DNA of 64,000 nt from Minisyncoccia bacterium (GTDB lineage Bacteria > Patescibacteriota > Minisyncoccia > Phycocordibacterales > UBA9973): the NCBI GenBank assembly GCA_041737125.1, contig JBGSSJ010000014.1, forward strand, positions 68,375-132,374, in the 5' to 3' direction. Below the pieces are notes generated by a model. The model was not told the origin of the DNA, did not search any database, and saw only the letters and a list, made by a program, of their open reading frames with translations. Made by a program: the position numbers and the translations under genes. Shown here one piece after another: positions 1,948 through 42,162 of this stretch; position 1 is the stretch's first letter; each line of letters begins with the position of its first letter.

Positions 1948-3591
1948 ATGGAAAATAAAAATACAATTAAATACTTTATCTATGCTCGTAAATCATCTGA
2001 GTCAGATGAAAAGCAAGTTCAATCTATTGATGACCAGATACTTGTTATGAATGGAATTGCAAAAAGTTATGGCTTTAAGATTGTAGATATTATTTCGGAG
2101 TCAAAATCAGCAAAAGAACCTCACGGACGACCAGAGTTTGAAAAAATGATTGAGCGTTTTCAAAAAGGTGAAGCACAGGGTGTACTTGTTTGGAAAATAG
2201 ACCGTCTCTCACGTAATCCAATAGATAGTGCAACTATTCAATGGTTTTTACAGAAAGGAGTTATTGCTTCAATTCGTACACCAGATAGAGAATACCGTCC
2301 AGAAGATAATGCTTTGCTTTTGAGTGTGGAGAGTAGTATGGCAAATCAATATATAAGAGATTTAAGTACAAATGTGAAGCGTGGTCTTAAAAGTAAACTA
2401 GAGAAAGGTTGGATGCCTTGTACTGCTCCACTTGGTTATTTGAATACAAAAACAGAAATACGGGGTGAGAATTATATTATTAAAGATACAGAACGTTTTG
2501 ATTTAATTCGTAAAGGTTGGGATTTATTACTTACTGGAAATTATAATGTAGTACAAGTAATGAGGAAACTTAATGAGTGGGGTTTTCGTACTAGAGCTTG
2601 GAAAAGGAGAGGTAACAAACCACTTGCTAAAAGCACTGTATATAAGATTTTTAATAACGTATTTTATGCTGGAATTATTCCGTATAAAGATTTATATGTT
2701 CAAGGCAAACACGACACAATGATTACTATTGAGGAGTTTGATAGAGTTCAAGTATTACTCGGTAAAAAAGGTAAGCCACGCCCACATAATTATGAATATG
2801 CTTATACAGGGCAAATAGTTTGTGGTGATTGTGGGGGTGTTGTTTCAGCTACATTCAAAGAAAAAATTATTAAGAAAACAAATAAACTCCAAAGTTATAT
2901 TTTGTATTATTGTATTTGTGCTCGTAAGCATAGTGATAAATGCCCAGACCAAAAACATTATACTAATTCAGATAAGATAGATGAAAAAATTGAGAAAGAA
3001 CTCATCTCCTTGACCATTTTACCAGAGTTCAAAGATTGGGCTCTTGCTATTATTGCTGAAAAGAATGATGAAGAAATTACAAACAGAACGAAGATTTATG
3101 AGACCCAACAAAAAGCTGTAAACGAAACACAGAAACAAATTGATAACCTCACACAACTACGTTTGAAAGATATGATAGATGATGATGAATATACGAAAGA
3201 AAAAACACGATTAAAAAATGAATTGGCTCTTTTAAGAACAAAGATGAAGGGTACAGAAGAAAGAGCTGATAATTGGCTAAAACTAACAGAACAAACATTT
3301 GAGTTCGCTTGTTATGCTCATAAGGCATTTATGTTTGGTGATATACAAACTAAGAGAGAAATACTAGGAACCATATCTCGTTTGAACTCAACATTAAAAG
3401 ACCACATACTCAATGTTACCAAAGTAGAATGGCTAGTACCCATAGAAAAACAGTATCCTTTGATAAAAGAGAAGTATGATGCGTTTGAACTGAAAAATAA
3501 GCATAACCCACAAAGACAAAAGGACGCTTTCGCGTCCTTGAGTCCCTTAATGCGCAGTCGAAGGGACTTGAACCCTCAACCTCCCACGTGA
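1948..3591 (+). CDS. large serine recombinase (resolvase/invertase-type catalytic domain, recombinase domain, zinc ribbon)
   Basis: N-terminal YARKSSESDEKQVQSIDDQ...VWKIDRLSRN serine-recombinase catalytic motif; CGDCGG Cys cluster; coiled-coil C-terminus. The 3' end reads through the antisense of tRNA-Asp. Confidence 0.85.
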   Translation: MENKNTIKYFIYARKSSESDEKQVQSIDDQILVMNGIAKSYGFKIVDIISESKSAKEPHGRPEFEKMIERFQKGEAQGVLVWKIDRLSRNPIDSATIQWFLQKGVIASIRTPDREYRPEDNALLLSVESSMANQYIRDLSTNVKRGLKSKLEKGWMPCTAPLGYLNTKTEIRGENYIIKDTERFDLIRKGWDLLLTGNYNVVQVMRKLNEWGFRTRAWKRRGNKPLAKSTVYKIFNNVFYAGIIPYKDLYVQGKHDTMITIEEFDRVQVLLGKKGKPRPHNYEYAYTGQIVCGDCGGVVSATFKEKIIKKTNKLQSYILYYCICARKHSDKCPDQKHYTNSDKIDEKIEKELISLTILPEFKDWALAIIAEKNDEEITNRTKIYETQQKAVNETQKQIDNLTQLRLKDMIDDDEYTKEKTRLKNELALLRTKMKGTEERADNWLKLTEQTFEFACYAHKAFMFGDIQTKREILGTISRLNSTLKDHILNVTKVEWLVPIEKQYPLIKEKYDAFELKNKHNPQRQKDAFASLSPLMRSRRDLNPQPPT

Positions 3592-3626
3592 CAGGCGGGT
3601 GCTCTAACCAGTTGAGCTACGACTGC
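3553..3626 (-). tRNA. tRNA-Asp (anticodon GTC)
   Basis: Manual cloverleaf: acceptor GCAGTCG/CGACTGC, D-arm GCTC..GAGC, anticodon loop CTGTCAC, T-arm GAGGG-TTCAAGT-CCCTT; CCA not encoded. Confidence 0.8.
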
Positions 3627-4984: not shown

Positions 4985-5030
4985 AAGGCCTCTTCTTATA
5001 AAAGAAGGGGCCTTAAGGGTTTGTTTTTTT
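4985..5030. terminator. bidirectional rho-independent terminator
   Basis: AAGGCCTCTTCTT-ataaa-AAGAAGGGGCCTT hairpin followed by a T-run; sits between the tRNA-Thr gene and the convergent proC-like gene. Confidence 0.55.
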
Positions 5031-6033
5031 ATTGCCAGAGGGGTAGCGCGTAAGGTTTAATGCTTTGCCCAGAAAGATTATCCGAATTGTTTTTCCTTCT
5101 CCATTCATTAAAATCATTGTTTATTTTACGTTTCATTGATTTAACCTTCTTGTACATAGCATCAAATGCTTTTGAAAGTTTTTCAACAGAGAGTATATCC
5201 TCAAGTGAGTTACATAAGGTTAATCCTCTCTCTGTGCATCCACCAGGTGTAGCTACAATCTTAATATAATCTTCAAGCTTGTCGCACCCATCATCCATAC
5301 CAATAGAAAGACATAGGGTGTAGTAAGTACTATCGAAGCTTAATCGAGCTGTTTGATGAAAACCCGAGCCAAATATTTTTAAAGTTGCCTCCTTTTTGGC
5401 GGTTAAATATTTTTCTATCAGGCCTTGTCTTGATTTCAATTGTCTCAGAAATACACCAAATGATTTATCTCCCCCTTCTATTTCATATCGAAGTTTTATG
5501 TATTGGGAATCAAACGCTGCCATTGATGCACATAACACTATGTATTTTTCAATATCTCCAGTAGAAACATCGAGCATTACTTGGTGTTTTAATTGTGGAA
5601 AAATTTTTTTCATTAATGAGACCTGATCTTCTTTTATGGCTCGATAGCAAATAATCCCATAACCATAAGCAATGTTTACATTTACTGTCGCTTTAACAAC
5701 ACTCTCCTCTGATATTTTTATTATCCTAGAAATTATTGTGATGTTAAGTCCTGTTACAAAGCTTATAATCTTAGCATCAGGGTTTATTCTACCTCTAAGA
5801 TCAACCAAAAGATTTACAGCATCAACTGGCCTTACAGCCAAAATAATATGTTTATAATCCTTTAGGTCGGGTGAGTTAATTTCCAGATTCCTTGCGTCTG
5901 GATTTTGAGGGTTGAAGTAGTCACGTTTTACTACAAAAATGTTTTCTTTTTTGTAGCCTGCGTAATTTATCAAGCCTTGAACAATTTCTTTACCAAGTTT
6001 ACCGTTGCCAATGATGGCGATTTGCTTACTCAT
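5029..6033 (-). CDS. proC: pyrroline-5-carboxylate reductase-like NAD(P)-binding oxidoreductase with a C-terminal extension
   Basis: N-terminal Rossmann motif IAIIGNGKLGKEI and C-terminal ATPGGCTERGL motif typical of ProC. Confidence 0.5.
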   Translation of the reverse strand: MSKQIAIIGNGKLGKEIVQGLINYAGYKKENIFVVKRDYFNPQNPDARNLEINSPDLKDYKHIILAVRPVDAVNLLVDLRGRINPDAKIISFVTGLNITIISRIIKISEESVVKATVNVNIAYGYGIICYRAIKEDQVSLMKKIFPQLKHQVMLDVSTGDIEKYIVLCASMAAFDSQYIKLRYEIEGGDKSFGVFLRQLKSRQGLIEKYLTAKKEATLKIFGSGFHQTARLSFDSTYYTLCLSIGMDDGCDKLEDYIKIVATPGGCTERGLTLCNSLEDILSVEKLSKAFDAMYKKVKSMKRKINNDFNEWRRKNNSDNLSGQSIKPYALPLWQ

Positions 6034-6304
6034 TTTTTCAGCCTCCTCTGGCTGTGTTTATTTGATTTTTAATGAACAAAAAAGAGCCCCACATTATGTA
6101 GAGCTCTTTTTTATAATTTAATCTTAGAAGGAGAATTACATTACAAAAAACAACCCTACATGTTTGTTCCATGGAGTACAGAAGGGAGTGTTATATTTTT
6201 GTATGTTTCTCGACATATTTTTAATGTATCATACACGTTTTCATATTGCAACAGTTGTGATAATCTATGTTTATCAGTTGGTAGACCTGCCCGCCATCGC
6301 CTAA

Positions 6305-6377
6305 GCCCATGTAGCTCAATTAGTAGAGCATCGGTATCGTAAACCGAAGGTTAGGAGTGCAATTCTCCTCGTGGGCT
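6305..6377 (+). tRNA. tRNA-Thr (anticodon CGT) embedded between GC-rich inverted-repeat arms
   Basis: Acceptor GCCCATG/CGTGGGC, D-arm GCTC-AATTAGTA-GAGC, anticodon loop ATCGTAA, T-arm AGGAG-TGCAATT-CTCCT (atypical T-loop). Confidence 0.65.
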
Positions 6378-6448
6378 CAGGCGTAGGCAGGCGGGGCGAC
6401 CCCTTCGTAAGGGGTAGGTCCGCAGTTCGATTCTGCGAGGTGGCTCCA
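6378..6448 (+). pseudogene. 5'-truncated tRNA-like element (anticodon arm with CGT, canonical T-arm TTCGATT, acceptor 3' strand plus encoded CCA) lacking a matching 5' acceptor strand or D-arm
   Basis: ACCCC-TTCGTAA-GGGGT anticodon arm, CGCAG-TTCGATT-CTGCG T-arm, AGGTGGC-T-CCA. No GCCACCT partner found upstream. Confidence 0.35.
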
Positions 6449-6467
6449 TATTTGCTATACTAGTCTG

Positions 6468-7352
6468 ATGGATACAGAAGAAATAAAAAGAGAAATAGAC
6501 AAGCTAGAGGAGGAAATAACAGCTCCAGATTTCTGGAATAATAAATTAGAAGCACAAACTAAGATAAAGAAATTAGGGGAACTGAAAGACGCTTTACTTG
6601 GTAGTCAGAAGTATGACAAAGGTAATGCAGTACTCTCTATTTTATCTGGGGCAGGGGGTGATGATGCAGAGGACTTCTCCTCTATGCTTCTTACTATGTA
6701 TCTCAAATATATGGCAAGAAAAGGTTGGCAAGTGAATCTCATCCATGAGAATAAGAATGATGTGGGTGGCTTCCGCAACATATCTATAGAAGTCGCAGGG
6801 AAGAACGCTTATGGCACGCTGAAGAACGAGTCTGGAGTACATAGACTGGTACGTATATCACCATTTAATGCGAAGTCTCTTCGTCATACATCATTCTCTC
6901 TCGTAGAGGTGATACCGAAGCTCACAGTGAACGATAGTGTAATAGAAATACCACCCGAAGACATGAAGATCGAGTTCTCCAAGTCTGGAGGTCCAGGAGG
7001 CCAGAATGTCAACAAGAGGGAGACAGCAGTTCGCATAGTCCATATACCGACCAATCTATCCGTTCACGTCGCTACCGAGCGTTCCCAAGAGCAGAATCGC
7101 GAACGAGCGCTTGAAATGCTTAAAGGCAAGCTTTTTAAGAAGCGCCAAGAGGATGAGGCCAAGCTAAAAGCCGGTCTTTCTGTGTCTACGAAGTCAACCG
7201 AGATAGAGTGGGGCAGTCAGATTCGCTCATATGTACTCCATCCTTATAAACAAATAAAAGATCATAGGACCGATGTCGAAGTTCGTGATGTTGACAGCGT
7301 ACTTCTGGATGGTGAACTAGATGTCTTCATTGAAGCGGAAGCTCATTTGTGA
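6468..7352 (+). CDS. prfB: peptide chain release factor 2, short form (N-terminal domain reduced)
   Basis: SPF tripeptide motif (RISPFNAKSLRHTSF) and GGQ motif (GGQNVNKRETAVRIVHIPT); TGA stop. Confidence 0.85.
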   Translation: MDTEEIKREIDKLEEEITAPDFWNNKLEAQTKIKKLGELKDALLGSQKYDKGNAVLSILSGAGGDDAEDFSSMLLTMYLKYMARKGWQVNLIHENKNDVGGFRNISIEVAGKNAYGTLKNESGVHRLVRISPFNAKSLRHTSFSLVEVIPKLTVNDSVIEIPPEDMKIEFSKSGGPGGQNVNKRETAVRIVHIPTNLSVHVATERSQEQNRERALEMLKGKLFKKRQEDEAKLKAGLSVSTKSTEIEWGSQIRSYVLHPYKQIKDHRTDVEVRDVDSVLLDGELDVFIEAEAHL

Positions 7353-37618: not shown

Positions 37619-37977
37619 TAACTTTGGACGGTTTTTCTAATAATGAACTGGGCAGGTAGCAAAAAACTCCTAGCCAGATCCGACATACCCCGTGAGGTAT
37701 GCCCACATCAGTTTCCCGATGTGACCGTCCAAAGTAGACCCCTGACTAGGAGATCTTTGCTTTGGACGGATTTGCAACCATATCCTTTGGCGAACCAAAG
37801 GGGTTAGGTCGACTGATATTCAGTTGTAAATGAATAATAACATTTTCAGAGTTATTACTCTAGATTGATTGTATCGCTGATACGTGGTTTTGCTAAGGAT
37901 AGTATCGCGAGTATGCGACGTATTTCTTAGTCTGCATAGTCTTAGCAAAATAGATGATCTGCGTCATTAATTAATAT
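37619..37977. promoter_or_regulatory. palindrome-rich non-coding region upstream of the second serine recombinase (candidate attachment site and promoter)
   Basis: CTTTGGACGG at 37621 and 37758 with its inverse CCGTCCAAAG at 37725; CTCCTAG / CTAGGAG inverted pair; TTGCTAAG..CTTAGCAA inverted pair. Confidence 0.35.
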
Positions 37978-39379: not shown

Positions 39380-40957
39380 ATGACCACACTAACCAAAAAA
39401 CAAAAAGAAGTATTTGATTATATAAGCACATATATCGCTGAAAATGGTATTTCTCCAACCATTGATCAGATTCGTAAAAAATTAAAGCTGAAGGCAGTCT
39501 CTACTGTTCATGAACATATCGCTTCCCTAAGAGAAAAAGGATACCTTTCAAAGTCAGATAGTACAGATCGAGGGATGACACCAAAAAAAGAAATCAAATC
39601 GGTAATTGAGATTCCTATAGTTGGTAAAATTGCTGCTGGTCAACCAATTGAGGCATTAGAAGATCATCAGGCTACTATTTCAATAATAAATCCCTCTATT
39701 AAGAGTGCTAAGGATCATTATGCTTTACGAGTAGTTGGTGACAGTATGATCGATGAAGGTATTTTTAATGGAGATATTGTGGTTATTAAAAAACAATCCG
39801 TAGCAGAGAATGGACAAACTGTTGTCGCGATTATTGACGATAACCAAGCAACCCTCAAAAAATTATATAAGGAGGATAAAAAAATAAGGCTACAGCCTGG
39901 AAATCCTGACATGAAGCCTTTGTTTAGAGTAGATGTTGAGATCAGAGGTGTTGTTGTTCAAGTTATAAGAAATATCGATAATGAAGCAGAAGTGTTACCT
40001 ACAAAGAAACAGAAGCATGGTTTTAGAACAATAGACTTATTTGCTGGAGTAGGAGGCATCCGAAAAGGATTTGAAAATGCAGGTTTTAAAACAGTCTTTG
40101 CAAATGATTTTGATGCCCCTTGTAAGCAGACATATGATTTGAATTTTAAAGATTCTAAATTAATAATTGAAGACATTAGAAAAATTGGTATCAATGATTT
40201 ACCAGAGTTTGACTTTATACTCGGAGGTTTTCCTTGTCAGGCATTTTCTATAGCAGGCTATCGCAAAGGCTTTGATGATCCTAAAAATAGAGGTAACCTG
40301 TTTTTTGATATTGCGAAGATTATTGAAGCAAGAAAACCAGCAGGCTTCATGTTGGAAAATGTTAAAAATCTAAAAAGCCATGATGATGGAAATACTTTTA
40401 GAATTATCGAAGAGACCCTCAGAGATCTTGGTTACCATGTAAAATCCAAAGTACTAAACACTATGGAATATGGAAATGTTCCCCAAAATCGTGAGAGAAT
40501 TTATATTGTAGGATTTAGAAATAAAGATTACTTTGATAGGTTTAACTTTCCAGAACCAGTAAAACTCACAAAAAAAATAACAGATCTCTTAGAGAAAAAT
40601 GTTCCTGAAAAATACTATTACAATGGCAAACCTCTTTTTGATAAATTAAAGAAAGACGTAAAAGAAGAAGGTAAGGTATACCAATGGCGAAGGCAATATG
40701 TTCGCGAAAATAAAAGTGGGGTTTGCCCTACTCTCACAGCAAATATGGGAATGGGTGGACACAATGTACCAATTATCAAAGATAAGAAAGGTATCAGAAA
40801 ACTTACGCCATTAGAGTGCTTTAGAATACAAGGATTTCCTGCAACTTATATTTTACCCAAGATCGCAGACTCTTCTTTGTATAAACAAGCTGGCAATTCA
40901 GTTAGTGTCCCTGTTATTGAAGCCGTTGCTAAAAAAATGATGGAGGCAATGAAGTAG
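39380..40957 (+). CDS. fusion of a full-length LexA repressor (wHTH plus S24 autopeptidase) to a cytosine-5 DNA methyltransferase
   Basis: LexA part: LTKKQKEVFDYI, cleavage site KIAAGQP, VGDSM Ser, TLKKL Lys. MTase part: motif I DLFAGVGG, motif IV GFPCQAFS (PCQ), ENV, C-terminal QAGNSVSVPV. Confidence 0.85.
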   Translation: MTTLTKKQKEVFDYISTYIAENGISPTIDQIRKKLKLKAVSTVHEHIASLREKGYLSKSDSTDRGMTPKKEIKSVIEIPIVGKIAAGQPIEALEDHQATISIINPSIKSAKDHYALRVVGDSMIDEGIFNGDIVVIKKQSVAENGQTVVAIIDDNQATLKKLYKEDKKIRLQPGNPDMKPLFRVDVEIRGVVVQVIRNIDNEAEVLPTKKQKHGFRTIDLFAGVGGIRKGFENAGFKTVFANDFDAPCKQTYDLNFKDSKLIIEDIRKIGINDLPEFDFILGGFPCQAFSIAGYRKGFDDPKNRGNLFFDIAKIIEARKPAGFMLENVKNLKSHDDGNTFRIIEETLRDLGYHVKSKVLNTMEYGNVPQNRERIYIVGFRNKDYFDRFNFPEPVKLTKKITDLLEKNVPEKYYYNGKPLFDKLKKDVKEEGKVYQWRRQYVRENKSGVCPTLTANMGMGGHNVPIIKDKKGIRKLTPLECFRIQGFPATYILPKIADSSLYKQAGNSVSVPVIEAVAKKMMEAMK

Positions 40958-40959
40958 GG

Positions 40960-41523
40960 TTACCAAACCTTTACATCAGTCGCGATTGGCTTAAGGTCAT
41001 ATTTTGCAATCACATCTTTTTTGATACAAAATCTAGGTCGTCTCTTTTCTTCTTGTTGCTGTTTTAGCGTTTGAAGTTTATTGACCGGGTTATCATAGAT
41101 AAAATTATTAGGTATTTTATATACCTTAAAAGTTCCGTCGACTCTGCCGTCAGCATAAAAATCTAAAAAATATAAATCGTCCCACTTAGATTTTGGACCA
41201 AAAGAAGTAAGATCATTTTCTACACTACAAGCTTTGATTTGTTCTGCTCTCTTTGTTTTAGTATTAAACGTATCAAATGATGTATTAGAAAGTTTTTTAG
41301 CACTTATTAATCTTGTGGATCCAGACCATAAACAAAAAGCAACCTCAGATAATCCTTCAGGAAAATTTGGTTCACGCGATTTATAATCACGCATTCCCAT
41401 CTTTAATCCTTTCCATAGATCAAATAGTGTTTTCCATTTTTTTCCATCAGAAGAATCAAACTCCATTAGATCAACGGTGCAGTCTTCATCAAAAATAGTA
41501 GTGTTTACTTTAACTAAGTTCAT
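40960..41523 (-). CDS. putative type II restriction endonuclease partner of the C5-MTase (small, possibly Bsp6I-like)
   Basis: Convergent with only a 3-bp gap to the C5-MTase gene; 187 aa with acidic/Lys clusters compatible with a PD-(D/E)xK enzyme. The call rests on context only. Confidence 0.35.
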   Translation of the reverse strand: MNLVKVNTTIFDEDCTVDLMEFDSSDGKKWKTLFDLWKGLKMGMRDYKSREPNFPEGLSEVAFCLWSGSTRLISAKKLSNTSFDTFNTKTKRAEQIKACSVENDLTSFGPKSKWDDLYFLDFYADGRVDGTFKVYKIPNNFIYDNPVNKLQTLKQQQEEKRRPRFCIKKDVIAKYDLKPIATDVKVW

Positions 41524-41628: not shown

Positions 41629-41728
41629 CTGCCAGACCTGGACTCGAACCAAGGAAGTGTCCTACCCGCCCGCCATTGCAAGCATGAGCTTGCTCAGGCG
41701 TTGCGGGCGGGCCATTAGACGATCACTG
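41629..41728 (-). pseudogene. degenerate tRNA-Gln paralog: T-arm and acceptor 3' strand intact, anticodon arm deleted, 47-nt GC-rich palindrome inserted in the D-loop, 5' acceptor mutated
   Basis: Aligns base-for-base with tRNA-Gln at 41743..41813 except for the missing anticodon arm and the inserted CCCGCCCGCC...GCGGGCGGG hairpin (41665..41711). Confidence 0.45.
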
Positions 41729-41742
41729 ATTTCTGCACAAAG

Positions 41743-41813
41743 CTGCCAGACCTGGACTCGAACCAAGATAACCTCCTCCAGAGGGAGGTGTCCTACCATT
41801 AGACGATCTGGCA
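41743..41813 (-). tRNA. tRNA-Gln (anticodon CTG)
   Basis: Acceptor TGCCAGA/TCTGGCA, D-arm GTCT-AATGGTA-GGAC, anticodon arm CCTCC-CTCTGGA-GGAGG, T-arm CTTGG-TTCGAGT-CCAGG. Confidence 0.8.
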
Positions 41814-41828
41814 GCTTTGTGCATAAAT

Positions 41829-42065
41829 TTATATTCTCTCTTTTAAAAATCTTCTCCCAAAACCTGTTTTAAAATACTTTTCTCTTTTCAATGCTTTTTC
41901 TTTACTATTACAAGCTTCATAATATAAAATTTCTAAAGGTCTTCTATTCTCAGTAGCTGGTACTTTGCCTGCAGAATGAAGATTAAATCTATTCTTCAGG
42001 TCTTCGGTATAACCTACATATAAATCACCATCCTTTAAACTTTTTAATACATATGTGTAATACAT
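41829..42065 (-). CDS. GIY-YIG nuclease superfamily small protein (YhbQ/UPF0213-like)
   Basis: YTYVLKS...GDLYVGYTEDLKNRFNLHSAG GIY-YIG motif and C-terminal REKYFKTGFGRRFL. Confidence 0.75.
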   Translation of the reverse strand: MYYTYVLKSLKDGDLYVGYTEDLKNRFNLHSAGKVPATENRRPLEILYYEACNSKEKALKREKYFKTGFGRRFLKERI

Positions 42066-42073
42066 AAATTAAA

Positions 42074-42136
42074 GTCCTACCCGCCCGCCATCGCAAGTAT
42101 GAGCTTGCTCAGGCGTTGCGGGCGGGCTATTAGACG
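42074..42136. repeat. second copy of the GC-rich ~47-nt palindromic element with tRNA D-arm-like flanks (gtcctac...attagacga)
   Basis: 42079..42125 matches 41665..41711 with 3 substitutions; the flanks gtcctac and c(t/c)attagacga are conserved. Confidence 0.55.
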
Positions 42137-42162
42137 AGCCGGCAATGCGATCGGCAAATACT

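Follow-up and report, generated by a model that had tools for sequence, protein, structure and literature searches.

The tRNA-Thr(CGT) locus preceding prfB in the DNA analysed here (a stretch of 64,000 nucleotides, hereafter the window) consists of a complete tRNA-Thr(CGT) gene, flanked by GC-rich palindrome arms, inserted into a resident tRNA-Thr(CGT) gene. Relatives keep the empty site, and related elements recur elsewhere at stereotyped positions, within tRNA genes of matching anticodon, nested and in various states of decay. We consider it probable that the region 6274-6448 represents a resident tRNA-Thr(CGT) gene split by a tRNA-carrying element belonging to a homing-type, tRNA-replacing selfish family that is distributed Patescibacteria-wide. 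The family is apparently undescribed, as no Rfam family corresponds to it and no account of the element was found in the literature searched (GIY-YIG and tRNA in Patescibacteria, CPR palindromes, nested tRNA, CPR tRNA introns, UPF0213/YhbQ). The parts of the locus are given below, with nt numbers referring to the tRNA and a slash marking a junction or insertion point.

6274..6285, plus strand: 5' remnant of the outer tRNA-Thr(CGT), D-arm TCAGTTGGTAGA (nt 12-23), identical to the intact L243 orthologue, GCCACCTTAGCTCAGTTGGTAGA/GC
6286..6304, plus strand: 5' arm of the cargo palindrome, CCTGCCCGCCATCGCCTAA, pairing with the 3' arm
6305..6377, plus strand: inner complete tRNA-Thr(CGT), the cargo of the element (ARAGORN, Rfam RF00005)
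6378..6395, plus strand: 3' arm of the cargo palindrome, CAGGCGTAGGCAGGCGGG, pairing with the 5' arm
6396..6448, plus strand: 3' part of the outer tRNA-Thr(CGT) (nt 24-76), 82% identical to nt 24-73 of the L243 orthologue

A previous reading of this DNA, made from the letters alone (the sequence-only reading), had described a complete tRNA nested within an inverted repeat and followed by a 5'-truncated tRNA-like copy. The complete tRNA was confirmed by ARAGORN, which assigns it as Thr(CGT), and by Rfam (6305-6377/8, RF00005, 63.9 bits, the gathering score being 29). Its T-loop, TGCAATT, is as odd as had been stated, with an unusual G at position 55 that departs from the canonical T54-Psi55-C56, and its D-loop, AATTAGTA, has no GG and thereby departs from the canonical G18 G19. 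The same pair of T-loop and D-loop changes is found in L227 and in L153/L206 and may represent a tertiary covariation. The inner tRNA is 97% identical to the inner tRNA of L227, compared to 64-71% identity to the resident-lineage tRNA-Thr(CGT) of L242 and L243. Judged by these comparisons, it is foreign to the resident lineage, and it is presumably the working gene now.

The arms pair with each other and thereby lengthen the acceptor stem of the inner tRNA into a long, very stable helix, as indicated by a minimum free energy of -77.6 kcal/mol for 6270-6450 (shuffled sequences, -58.8 +/- 4.3 kcal/mol; z = -4.4; equalled by 0 of 200 shuffles). The pairing and stem extension proposed previously therefore hold, whereas the end of the 3' arm had to be moved from 6399 to 6395, positions 6396-6399 being nt 24-27 of the outer tRNA. 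Within the 110-nt insert, 73 nt are tRNA, and there is no ORF; a conserved GCTCAGGCGT motif starts at 6375, overlapping the 3' end of the inner tRNA. A promoter and terminator scan of 6040-6480 found none. Apart from tRNA, Rfam at E <= 10 returned no match in 6200-6480 save one of the T-arm to cyano_tmRNA (7.5 bits, E = 5.9), and ARAGORN reported no tmRNA, so that a tmRNA at this locus is not supported. The palindrome is likewise uncovered by Rfam at E <= 10 at both loci described here (6.3 kb and 41.6-42.15 kb) and at the gathering threshold over the whole window, where only tRNAs and LOOT were matched.

Regarding the second copy, the anticodon arm with CGT (6399-6415, loop TTCGTAA), the canonical T-arm (6421-6437) and AGGTGGC-T-CCA (6438-6448), that is, the 3' acceptor strand, the discriminator T and CCA, are all present within 6396-6448 as had been described. 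Its overlooked D-arm TCAGTTGGTAGA at 6274-6285, however, shows that this copy is interrupted and 5'-decayed and not merely truncated. The outer 5' acceptor strand (about 6263-6273) has decayed from GCCACCT to an AT-rich, ATCTATG-like sequence, and no 5' partner strand for AGGTGGC was found within the window; the GCCACCT 5' strand that L243 and L068 retain complements AGGTGGC exactly. With this strand gone and the D-stem split by the 110-nt insert, the outer gene has lost needed parts in the manner of a pseudogene. Since intact orthologues read GGCTCAAA and GGCTCATA at the place of the CCA, the CCA encoded by the outer copy is probably incidental.

The uninterrupted state of this gene is preserved in L243, whose RF2 is 81% identical, and in L242. 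Both share the gene order of the window and carry tRNA-Thr(CGT) as GCCACCTTAGCTCAGTTGGTAGA/GCAC...GAGGTGGCT, about 22 nt ahead of prfB, and the spacer between the tRNA and the prfB ATG is conserved between the window and L243. The outer remnant (6274-6285 plus 6396-6448) is orthologous to the intact gene at the same position in these relatives, and the orthologous site is polymorphic, filled in the window and empty in L242 and L243. Given that relatives of the same gene order have an unbroken gene directly ahead of prfB, the 110-nt unit was inserted at nt 23/24. In silico removal of the insert restores the tRNA sequence exactly, without duplicated bases, and the inverted repeats are thus not flanked by a target-site duplication as those of MITE/DDE elements are.

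The unit as a whole is 98.2% identical to that of L227, while the flanks are only 60-67% identical and the neighbouring sequence is different. Near-identical copies in unrelated contexts, encountered here and, for the short form described below, across phyla, are a mark of mobile elements. Together, the empty site in relatives and the 98%-identical copy in a different context support a tRNA-targeting mobile palindrome, which the sequence-only reading had proposed as one of several possibilities. The locus goes beyond that proposal in that a complete tRNA is carried as cargo, inside a resident tRNA gene of the same anticodon. As to its surroundings, the host is bacterial (RF2, FtsE/FtsX), an ultra-small member of the Patescibacteria, and a large serine recombinase gene (1948-3591), overlapping tRNA-Asp, lies 2.7 kb upstream of the 6.3-kb locus.

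Counting the window, 34 non-redundant metagenome loci were recovered in which these arms enclose a complete tRNA and the whole is nested in a tRNA gene. The cargo is tRNA-Thr in 33 of these (CGT, TGT or GGT anticodons) and tRNA-Pro in one. Retrieval required 22 exact arm bases, and its GCTCAGGCGT anchor overlaps the tRNA-Thr 3' end, so that both this Thr dominance and the uniformity of the arms are partly due to ascertainment. Within these limits, the 5' arm sequence of the window is identical in 25 of 32 non-redundant tRNA-Thr elements (1-3 differences in the other 7), the last 17 nt of the 3' arm are identical in 30 of 32, and arm identity over the 18 positions that the search pattern left free is 96.8%, compared to 74.4% for the cargo tRNA. 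Insertion sites are stereotyped, lying at nt 23/24 in 22 loci, at nt 21/22 in two and within the anticodon (34/35 or 35/36) in eight, with no site assigned for L126 and L144; the junction GGTAGA/CCTGCC is common to the window and 21 other loci. Outer and inner anticodons agree in all 22 cases with a readable outer anticodon.

In nearly every recovered locus, L144 apart, the arms are enclosed by the recognisable, if often decayed, shell of an outer tRNA, and some shells have received further insertions or lost parts. Upon in silico removal of the insert, the outer tRNA looks intact in about half of the loci, the others showing extra insertions or decay; a recent insertion would explain the intact-looking outer tRNAs, as retained function equally would. 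In L139 and L172, decayed arms flank the outer tRNA itself, and solo palindromes are present in L238, L191 and L234. A comparison of inner tRNAs with their own outer shells gave no clear signal of conversion (0.35 vs 0.29).

The palindrome had also been assigned to one family with elements at 41.7 and 42.1 kb of the window, which we can corroborate: the arm motif has five matches against 0.27 expected, the 3' motif two against none, and an HMM search of the window returned exactly three members (6286-6395, 41665-41711 and 42080-42126). The latter two are short, cargo-less copies of 47 nt that are part of a tRNA-Gln module containing a nuclease gene.

41629..41664, minus strand: tRNA-Gln 3' remnant, TAGGACAC-TTCC-T-arm-TCTGGCAG (read directly)
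41665..41711, no strand assigned: short palindrome copy B, at nt 19/20 of a tRNA-Gln D-loop (nhmmer E = 8.2e-17)
41712..41724, minus strand: second tRNA-Gln D-arm remnant, GATCGTCTAATGG (read directly)
41742..41813, minus strand: intact tRNA-Gln(CTG), brought in along with the GIY-YIG cassette (ARAGORN; Rfam, 58.3 bits)
41829..42065, minus strand: 78-aa GIY-YIG nuclease ORF, catalytic domain only, UPF0213/YhbQ-like (Pfam PF01541, 59.1 bits)
42074..42079, minus strand: TAGGAC, continuation of the tRNA-Gln remnant (nt 20-25) beyond the palindrome (read directly)
42080..42126, no strand assigned: short palindrome copy C, at nt 19/20, within the D-loop of the tRNA-Gln remnant (nhmmer E = 2.9e-17)
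42127..42144, minus strand: tRNA-Gln 5' remnant, acceptor strand and D-loop, TGCCGGCTCGTCTAATAG, paralleling nt 1-19 of the intact tRNA-Gln, TGCCAGATCGTCTAATGG

The 3' remnant has its anticodon arm deleted and is identical to the intact copy in T-arm and acceptor strand, and the GIY-YIG start codon lies 14 nt past palindrome copy C. This module accordingly places a GIY-YIG domain beside a disrupted conserved gene, as in a homing cassette, which is not the case for the 6.3-kb copy. The nearest solved relatives of the protein are the UPF0213 proteins 1zg2 and 1ywl; it has more than 1100 homologues, and among the best 120 of those identity is about 70%, some being named for different Patescibacteria phyla. 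In all six GIY-YIG loci that were sampled independently of the palindrome, the order is a 5' tRNA remnant with the palindrome, the GIY-YIG gene and the same tRNA in intact form; conversely, 29 of 97 short copies lie at most 42 nt from a GIY-YIG ORF. The 47-mer of copy C recurs across Patescibacteria and is nearly invariant over at least about 90 copies from many phyla. Since the short form is found in either orientation and its apex changes without compensation, with no base-pair covariation, it is the sequence and not the structure that is kept. A strand-specific target rule was also considered and rejected, as "TA on the left" is true of the D-loop copies and fails for others. Rfam analysis of 18 palindrome loci outside tRNA genes revealed no other structured-RNA host, hairpin BLAST against phage and plasmid collections gave no match, and scans of viral contigs with both gap lengths gave a single match, by chance, in a GC-rich phage.

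Taken together, these observations suggest a model in which the element would wreck the tRNA gene that it enters and yet supply that tRNA in working form. Thanks to this supply, the cell would survive, the outer gene would become a dispensable, decaying shell, and the inner tRNA would become both the new resident gene and the next target. We infer that spread takes place at the DNA level and is of the homing type, a break in an uninterrupted tRNA gene being mended on the template of a copy that bears the element, for which the tRNA halves provide the homology. Repair of this kind would account for exact junctions without target duplication, fixed orientation, anticodon matching, Russian-doll nesting and tandem remnants. 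More speculatively, the near-invariant arms could serve the machinery as its cis-acting site, with the small GIY-YIG nuclease (41829-42065) as a candidate enzyme working in trans. Since the 6.3-kb copy has neither a nuclease nor a transposase gene beside it, and a GIY-YIG gene lies within the fetched flanks of only 3 of the about 34 cargo loci, the enzyme would be linked to the element by association only. Moreover, an element-bearing genome keeps an intact supposed target, so that a simple homing logic would need immunity or a low cutting rate. A broader reading, which we put forward tentatively, would unite the GIY-YIG protein of 78 aa with the arms and the cargo-less 47-mer in an unrecognised, Patescibacteria-specific class of mobile element. 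Its minimal nuclease, with a conserved DNA hairpin as guide or as substrate, would home into tRNA genes, and the element, instead of splicing out, would offset the damage by delivering a whole replacement tRNA.

Alternatively, the arms could owe their extreme conservation to an RNA role at the level of the host. In such a case, the GC-rich arms would be a host-beneficial RNA signal for excision of the inner tRNA, such as a double-stranded site of the RNase III type, or would clamp the inner tRNA against mispairing with neighbouring sequence. The prolonged acceptor stem and the higher conservation of the arms than of the tRNA that they enclose are consistent with this explanation, and precedents exist in the conserved GC-rich palindromes beside Neurospora mitochondrial tRNA genes (Yin, Heckman and RajBhandary 1981, as cited in PMC4478555) and in the stable hairpins that regulate expression upstream of free-standing endonuclease genes in T4-like phages (PMC2988022). 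Nevertheless, arms are present at only one of the six tRNA genes of the window, compared to most tRNA and rRNA genes in the Neurospora situation, and they lie within an outer tRNA shell at nearly all recovered loci. Orthologous tRNA-Thr(CGT) genes work without arms, older shells carry decayed ones, and the related short form varies without compensation in both orientations. We therefore regard a processing scaffold as unlikely to be the origin of the structure. The processing structure that the sequence-only reading had considered may be a secondary role of the arms, and as a full account it leaves the one armed tRNA in six, the outer shells and the orientations of the short form unexplained.

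In nanoarchaeal split tRNAs, the halves are joined via GC-rich complementary sequences. An analogous explanation would have the insert removed like an intron, or the inner tRNA excised by RNase P and RNase Z, and the outer halves ligated or clamped by the GC-rich arms, so that both tRNAs are made. Many outer tRNAs elsewhere are indeed intact save for the insert, the arms would keep the halves together, and the anticodon-internal site coincides with the unusual 35/36 position at which group I introns interrupt Patescibacteria tRNA genes (PMC13011429). Unlike those introns and archaeal split or permuted tRNAs, the 110-nt insert lacks a group I or II core and matches no ribozyme in Rfam, the junctions read from the sequence (GGTAGA/CCTGCC and GGCGGG/GCGA) give no 3-4-3 bulge-helix-bulge arrangement, there is no evidence of splicing, and the interrupted gene decays, further insertions and deletions accumulating in the outer shells. 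An outer tRNA cannot form in the window, where its 5' acceptor strand has been lost, and in the site class that cuts the anticodon an unligated nick would abolish decoding. The order of 5' remnant, insert and 3' part on one strand, with the 5' acceptor strand decayed, also speaks against the split or permuted arrangement raised previously. Overall, we find an intron-like or split tRNA very improbable.

Least probable of all is an origin as the scar of an integrase island that has since largely departed, with the intact tRNA and the partial 3' copy as attL/attR duplication, as a chance local duplication or as an assembly artefact: integrative elements typically leave partial tRNA repeats and the serine recombinase gene is near, yet that recombinase, the nearest one, is associated with tRNA-Asp, orthology identifies the partial copy as the resident, with the complete copy as the newcomer, the insert is bounded by conserved palindrome arms and not by direct repeats of a tRNA 3' end, and the identical architecture is found in more than 30 independent assemblies. 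The tRNA-replacing element does share with tRNA-targeting phages, ICEs and genomic islands the insertion into a tRNA gene, the keeping of a functional tRNA and the partial tRNA repeat left behind. Those are kb-scale elements with tyrosine or serine integrases that duplicate only the 3' part of the tRNA, whereas the 110-nt insert comes with a full tRNA of its own and remains enclosed by the two halves of the old gene.

Insertion of the yeast GC42 cluster is accompanied by an AG target duplication. Similar to this and other GC palindromes of fungal mitochondria (Neurospora PstI, Allomyces double-hairpin), the Patescibacteria palindromes are about 40-50 nt long, conserved and GC-rich within an AT-rich reduced genome, sporadically present or absent, nesting or merging, without an enzyme of their own and suspected to rely on endonucleases encoded elsewhere (GC-cluster traits, including the Neurospora palindromes beside tRNA genes, in part as given in PMC4478555 and its citations). 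In contrast to the fungal palindromes, with which they share no sequence similarity, they are bacterial and occupy stereotyped positions within the tRNA coding sequence, where no target duplication accompanies them. Moreover, one subfamily carries a same-anticodon tRNA as cargo and another is tied to a 78-aa GIY-YIG gene.

GIY-YIG ORFs of mitochondria bring a replacement end for the gene that they displace. Free-standing GIY-YIG cassettes such as SegB in the tRNA gene cluster of phage T4 (PMC2988022) resemble the tRNA-Gln module in several respects: the nuclease gene lies in the midst of tRNA genes or inside one, a remnant of the displaced target persists, a functional substitute comes with the cassette, and the ORF is directly preceded by stable hairpins. 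In the Patescibacteria module, by contrast, the 78-aa protein is a bare catalytic domain with no recognisable DNA-binding domain and a predicted nuclease role, the conserved palindrome is always in the 5' tRNA remnant, and the cargo subfamily carries no nuclease gene.

A further resemblance is to the multi-copy, non-coding imperfect palindromes of bacteria that are probably mobilised in trans (REP/BIME with RAYT, Rickettsia palindromic elements, Correia/RUP/BOX, IS200/IS605). Rickettsia palindromic elements also insert into genes, RNA genes included, and IS200/IS605-type elements insert without target duplication. In contrast to these repeats, no RAYT, TnpA, DDE or HUH (Y1) transposase was noticed beside the copies examined (loci of 2-14 kb), the copies recovered per genome were few (a lower bound), the association with tRNA genes is strong and almost exclusive, a whole tRNA is carried, and the same sequence spans many phyla.

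For the biology of Patescibacteria, the tRNA-replacing element would represent a strategy absent from the literature searched, in which a non-splicing insertion persists in an essential single-copy gene by carrying a full spare, and the spare then becomes the next target, giving rise to nested shells of tRNA within tRNA. This implies repeated horizontal replacement of tRNA genes in Patescibacteria, which bears on tRNA-based phylogeny, on codon and anticodon evolution and on the tRNA counts used for genome completeness, while interrupted shells and nested genes confuse annotators. The abundant, uncharacterised minimal GIY-YIG family (UPF0213-like) gains a DNA context, a 47-nt hairpin and a tRNA D-arm, which could reveal how a nuclease without a DNA-binding domain finds its target. 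The parallel with the GC-cluster and endonuclease ecology of AT-rich mitochondria suggests convergent parasite dynamics in reduced genomes. If the broader reading with the GIY-YIG protein is true, the element would be a natural gene-replacement drive, repeatedly overwriting tRNA genes across phyla and leaving nested fossil shells behind.

The complete tRNA-Thr(CGT) that the sequence-only reading had placed within a GC-rich inverted repeat was confirmed by both prediction tools and by the pairing of its flanking arms, which lengthen the acceptor stem of this inner tRNA.

6274-6285, 12 bases of a tRNA D-arm, TCAGTTGGTAGA, directly before the 5′ arm
6286-6304, 5′ arm CCTGCCCGCCATCGCCTAA, pairs with the 3′ arm
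6305-6377, complete inner tRNA-Thr(CGT), called by ARAGORN and Rfam (63.9 bits)
6378-6395, 3′ arm CAGGCGTAGGCAGGCGGG, pairs with the 5′ arm
6396-6448, downstream of the insert: anticodon arm (CGT), canonical T-arm and AGGTGGC-T-CCA, without a 5′ partner strand

The folding energy of the 181-nt stretch is −77.6 kcal/mol, compared to −58.8 ± 4.3 for shuffles (z = −4.4), in a window that is AT-rich (GC content 31–44%). Both arm motifs occur much more often than chance predicts (5 versus 0.27 expected for one, 2 versus 0 for the other), and a profile built from relatives detected three family members and no more in the window (6286–6395, 41665–41711 and 42080–42126), which substantiates the kinship proposed earlier between the palindrome at 6.3 kb and the elements at 41.7 and 42.1 kb. 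In the inner tRNA itself, T-loop position 55 is G rather than U and the D-loop has no G18 (AATTAGTA); the same pair of changes occurs in two further element-borne tRNAs (inner tRNAs of L227 and L153/L206, loci fetched for comparison from metagenome assemblies and other genomes), suggesting covariation of the tertiary 18–55 contact.

The window is bacterial, since the genes for RF2 (prfB), FtsE and FtsX come after the 6.3-kb locus; its placement in Patescibacteria is based on named homologues at ∼76% identity and on where the element occurs. The locus was compared to loci encoding the closest RF2 homologues (∼80% identical). Two of those fetched are arranged in the same gene order as the window: L242 has a tRNA-Asp/Met/Met/Thr(GGT) cluster followed by prfB-ftsE-ftsX, and L243 has tRNA-Thr(GGT), then an unannotated ORF placed like the 5029–6033 ORF of the window, then prfB-ftsE-ftsX. 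Both carry an uninterrupted tRNA-Thr(CGT) ∼22 nt upstream of prfB, in which GCCACCTTAGCTCAGTTGGTAGA directly joins GCACGTCTTTCGTAAAGACGGGGTCCGCAGTTCGATCCTGCGAGGTGGCT. By alignment, window positions 6396–6448 are 82% identical to nt 24–73 of this intact orthologue, the spacer from the tRNA to the prfB start codon is likewise conserved, and the orphan 3′ strand AGGTGGC is perfectly complementary to GCCACCT in L242/L243. For these reasons we assign 6274–6285 and 6396–6448 to one resident gene, which is split at nt 23/24 by a 110-nt insert (6286–6395), its 5′ acceptor strand having decayed since. The second tRNA copy had been described as 5′-truncated; its missing 5′ partner strand, CGT anticodon arm, T-arm and CCA stand, but the D-arm had been overlooked. 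The encoded CCA is probably accidental, as the orthologues have TCAA and TCAT at the same place. The inner tRNA, just 64–71% identical to the resident lineage, is the newcomer.

Scanning metagenomes for both arm motifs at a spacing of 60–90 nt gave at least 120 matching loci; GC-rich matches were rejected as chance matches, many lying within one conserved protein gene. At least 33 non-redundant loci on AT-rich contigs (at least 34 with the window) have an identical architecture, in which near-invariant arms surround a complete tRNA and the whole unit lies inside another tRNA gene. Among the matches listed, the cargo is tRNA-Thr (CGT, TGT or GGT) in 33 of 34 loci and tRNA-Pro in one, a dominance that, like the uniformity of the arms, is partly ascertainment because retrieval needed 22 exact arm bases and the anchor GCTCAGGCGT shares bases with the tRNA-Thr 3′ end (GGCT). 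One reversed tRNA-Gly case was additionally observed, and diverged variants are present in L030, L245, L248 and L250. Insertions among the matches listed lie at nt 23/24 (between GGTAGA and GC; 22 loci including the window), at nt 21/22 (two loci) or inside the anticodon (between TTTTG and TAAAC, nt 34/35 or 35/36; eight loci), with L126 and L144 unassigned in this tally. The anticodon-internal nt 35/36 site of type II loci (L129, L173, L153, L193, L238 and similar) coincides with the unusual group I intron position recently reported for Patescibacteria tRNA-Asn and tRNA-Asp (PMC13011429). Outer and inner anticodons are the same in all 22 listed loci with a readable outer loop, with no mismatched pair. 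The unit of L227 is 98.2% identical to that of the window, whereas its outer flanks are only 60–67% identical and the neighbouring sequence differs. Together with the empty site in relatives and the number of loci, this upholds the earlier suggestion of a tRNA-targeting mobile palindrome.

Roughly half of the outer genes (shells) were still recognised as tRNAs once the insert had been taken out in silico, and the others had lost parts or carried additional small hairpins. As decayed arms bracket the outer tRNA as well in L139 and L172 (for example, CCTGCTCGCTATATCCAA in place of the expected CCTGCCCGCCATCGCCTAA, then ...CAGGCGTAGACAGG followed by TAAACA), these loci contain three nested generations. 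A single shell in L238 contains both a solo palindrome (CCTGCCCGCC joined to GGCAGGCGGG) at nt 23/24 and a full element in the anticodon; similar solo palindromes occur in L191 and L234. Outer-shell acceptor stems of one locus recur as inner stems elsewhere, a pattern that fits today's shell being former cargo. A second, unrelated GC hairpin (CCGCC-AAA/AGA-GGCGG, then ATAAAC) lies repeatedly in the anticodon loop of dead outer tRNA-Thr shells (L138, L143, L160, L187, L219 and L234) and may be another tRNA-loop-seeking mini-element.

The palindrome also exists without cargo. A genome scan for this short form gave at least 119 loci, with at least about 90 copies of a 47-mer that hardly varies, CCCGCCCGCCATCGCAAGCATGAGCTTGCTCAGGCGTTGCGGGCGGG, in MAGs labelled Saccharibacteria, Gottesman-, Roizman-, Davies-, Magasanik-, Doudna-, Komeili-, Vogel-, Wildermuth-, Taylor- and Giovannonibacteria, WWE3 and Paceibacterota, some records being labelled just "bacterium" or, doubtfully, "Gammaproteobacteria". 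Among the matches listed, a third or more of the copies lie in the 5′ part of tRNA sequence (nt 7/8, 9/10, 13/14, 19/20 or 21/22), in both orientations, and no target duplication was found at these tRNA-borne copies. Some short palindromes lie within long open frames of 441–678 codons (L089 5284–5317, L061 6263–6309, L104 2556–2589 and L107 6453–6480); these frames may be real genes that the element interrupts or extends, as Rickettsia palindromic elements do.

Among the matches listed, 29 of 97 short copies lie ≤42 nt from a 78-aa GIY-YIG ORF, and in almost every case the copy immediately precedes the ORF start (12 in the same and 16 in the opposite orientation). To remove selection bias, six GIY-YIG homologues from long contigs were picked independently of the palindrome; all six loci show a 5′ tRNA-X remnant split by the family palindrome or a diverged variant, then the GIY-YIG gene, then an intact tRNA-X (Lys, Thr, Asn or Gln). 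The second locus of the window is a module of the same type, on the minus strand:

42144-42127, minus, tRNA-Gln remnant
42126-42080, minus, palindrome copy C
42079-42074, minus, TAGGAC
42065-41829, minus, GIY-YIG ORF, bare catalytic domain (PF01541, 59 bits)
41813-41742, minus, intact tRNA-Gln(CTG)
41724-41712, minus, second D-arm remnant
41711-41665, minus, palindrome copy B
41664-41629, minus, 3′ tRNA-Gln remnant without anticodon arm

The nearest solved relatives of the GIY-YIG protein are the UPF0213 proteins 1zg2 and 1ywl. A 10-nt inverted repeat, TGCACAAAGC ... GCTTTGTGCA (41814–41823/41732–41741, minus), which has no sequence relationship with the GC-rich arms, brackets the intact tRNA-Gln(CTG) and extends its acceptor stem. 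After tRNA-Lys in two different MAGs (L074 6040–6130 and L245), the tRNA 3′ end and terminator form a long palindrome, followed by a further conserved hairpin, GAGCAAGCCAACTGCTTGGCTTGCG.

Directly beside the tRNA-Gln module, LexA DNA-binding, S24 peptidase and C5 cytosine DNA methyltransferase domains are combined in a single 525-aa ORF (39380–40957, plus), which adjoins a Bsp6I-like restriction endonuclease ORF (40960–41523, minus); the two resemble a restriction-modification pair whose methylase is fused to a self-cleaving regulator of the SOS type. Elsewhere, a LOOT RNA (Rfam RF03000, a candidate structured RNA) scores 79 bits (gathering score 46.4) at 37682–37810 (minus). A 547-aa large serine recombinase (Resolvase, Recombinase and zinc-ribbon domains; 1948–3591, plus), whose 3′ end overlaps tRNA-Asp 3552–3626 on the opposite (minus) strand, may be part of an element integrated at the tRNA-Asp/Met/Met cluster.

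Taken together, a resident tRNA gene has received a 110-nt unit of palindrome arms and a complete tRNA whose anticodon matches its own; relatives have the empty site, members of the family are widespread and the old gene decays. We infer that spread occurs by homing-type repair: an uninterrupted tRNA gene would be broken in the D-arm or anticodon loop, its ends would pair with the homologous outer halves of a copy that bears the element, with all sequence between the halves then copied in. Such repair would yield exact junctions without duplication, a constant orientation of cargo units, the requirement for the same isoacceptor (homology of 23–35 nt on one side, 40–50 nt on the other) and tandem 5′ remnants around GIY-YIG genes (window, L074, L088 and L253); nesting would follow, as the target is present once more in the delivered tRNA. 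An insertion in a single-copy tRNA gene would survive selection only if accompanied by a working copy. More speculatively, arms and 47-mer could be the cis site of a machinery in which the candidate GIY-YIG protein acts in trans, against which count the lack of a nearby GIY-YIG gene at most cargo loci and the intact target retained by an element-bearing genome.

A processing scaffold, like the palindromes of Neurospora mitochondria, would account for the stable helix and conserved arms and fits in part. However, either orientation of the short form works, and turning it round alters its RNA sequence but not the sequence of the DNA; substitutions at its few variable positions are uncompensated; cargo arms are 96.8% identical (on 18 positions outside the fixed search pattern) versus 74.4% for the carried tRNA; and arms of older shells decay, indicating that the host does not maintain them in old elements. 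These four features favour recognition of DNA sequence. In addition, arms are missing from five of the six window tRNAs and from orthologous tRNA genes; the earlier proposal of a processing structure is thus disfavoured. The tighter constraint on the arms than on the tRNA may reflect a requirement for continued spread; no evidence was found for remodelling of inner tRNAs by their own shell (0.35 versus 0.29). An intron, or the split (or permuted) tRNA raised earlier, does not hold for the window locus, which has lost the outer 5′ strand, and is implausible at anticodon-internal sites. An integrase scar or assembly artefact is contradicted by the orthology of the outer gene and by recurrence in >30 assemblies.

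No Rfam family covers the palindrome, phage and plasmid collections gave no match to it, and the literature searched contains no description of the element; a recent survey of interrupted Patescibacteria tRNA genes treats only group I introns (PMC13011429). The element behaves like a blend of its four closest analogues, namely the mobile, GC-rich palindromes known from AT-rich mitochondrial genomes (PMC4478555), free-standing GIY-YIG homing cassettes, of which T4 SegB within a tRNA cluster is an example (PMC2988022), bacterial REP/RPE-type repeats and integrative elements restoring the tRNA they enter. From each of them it departs in a defining feature: it makes no target duplication, has neither transposase nor integrase, does not splice, and carries as cargo a complete tRNA that is nested in its own target. 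We therefore file it with the small palindromic/homing kind, with a real chance that the hairpin and its minimal candidate nuclease system form a class of their own.
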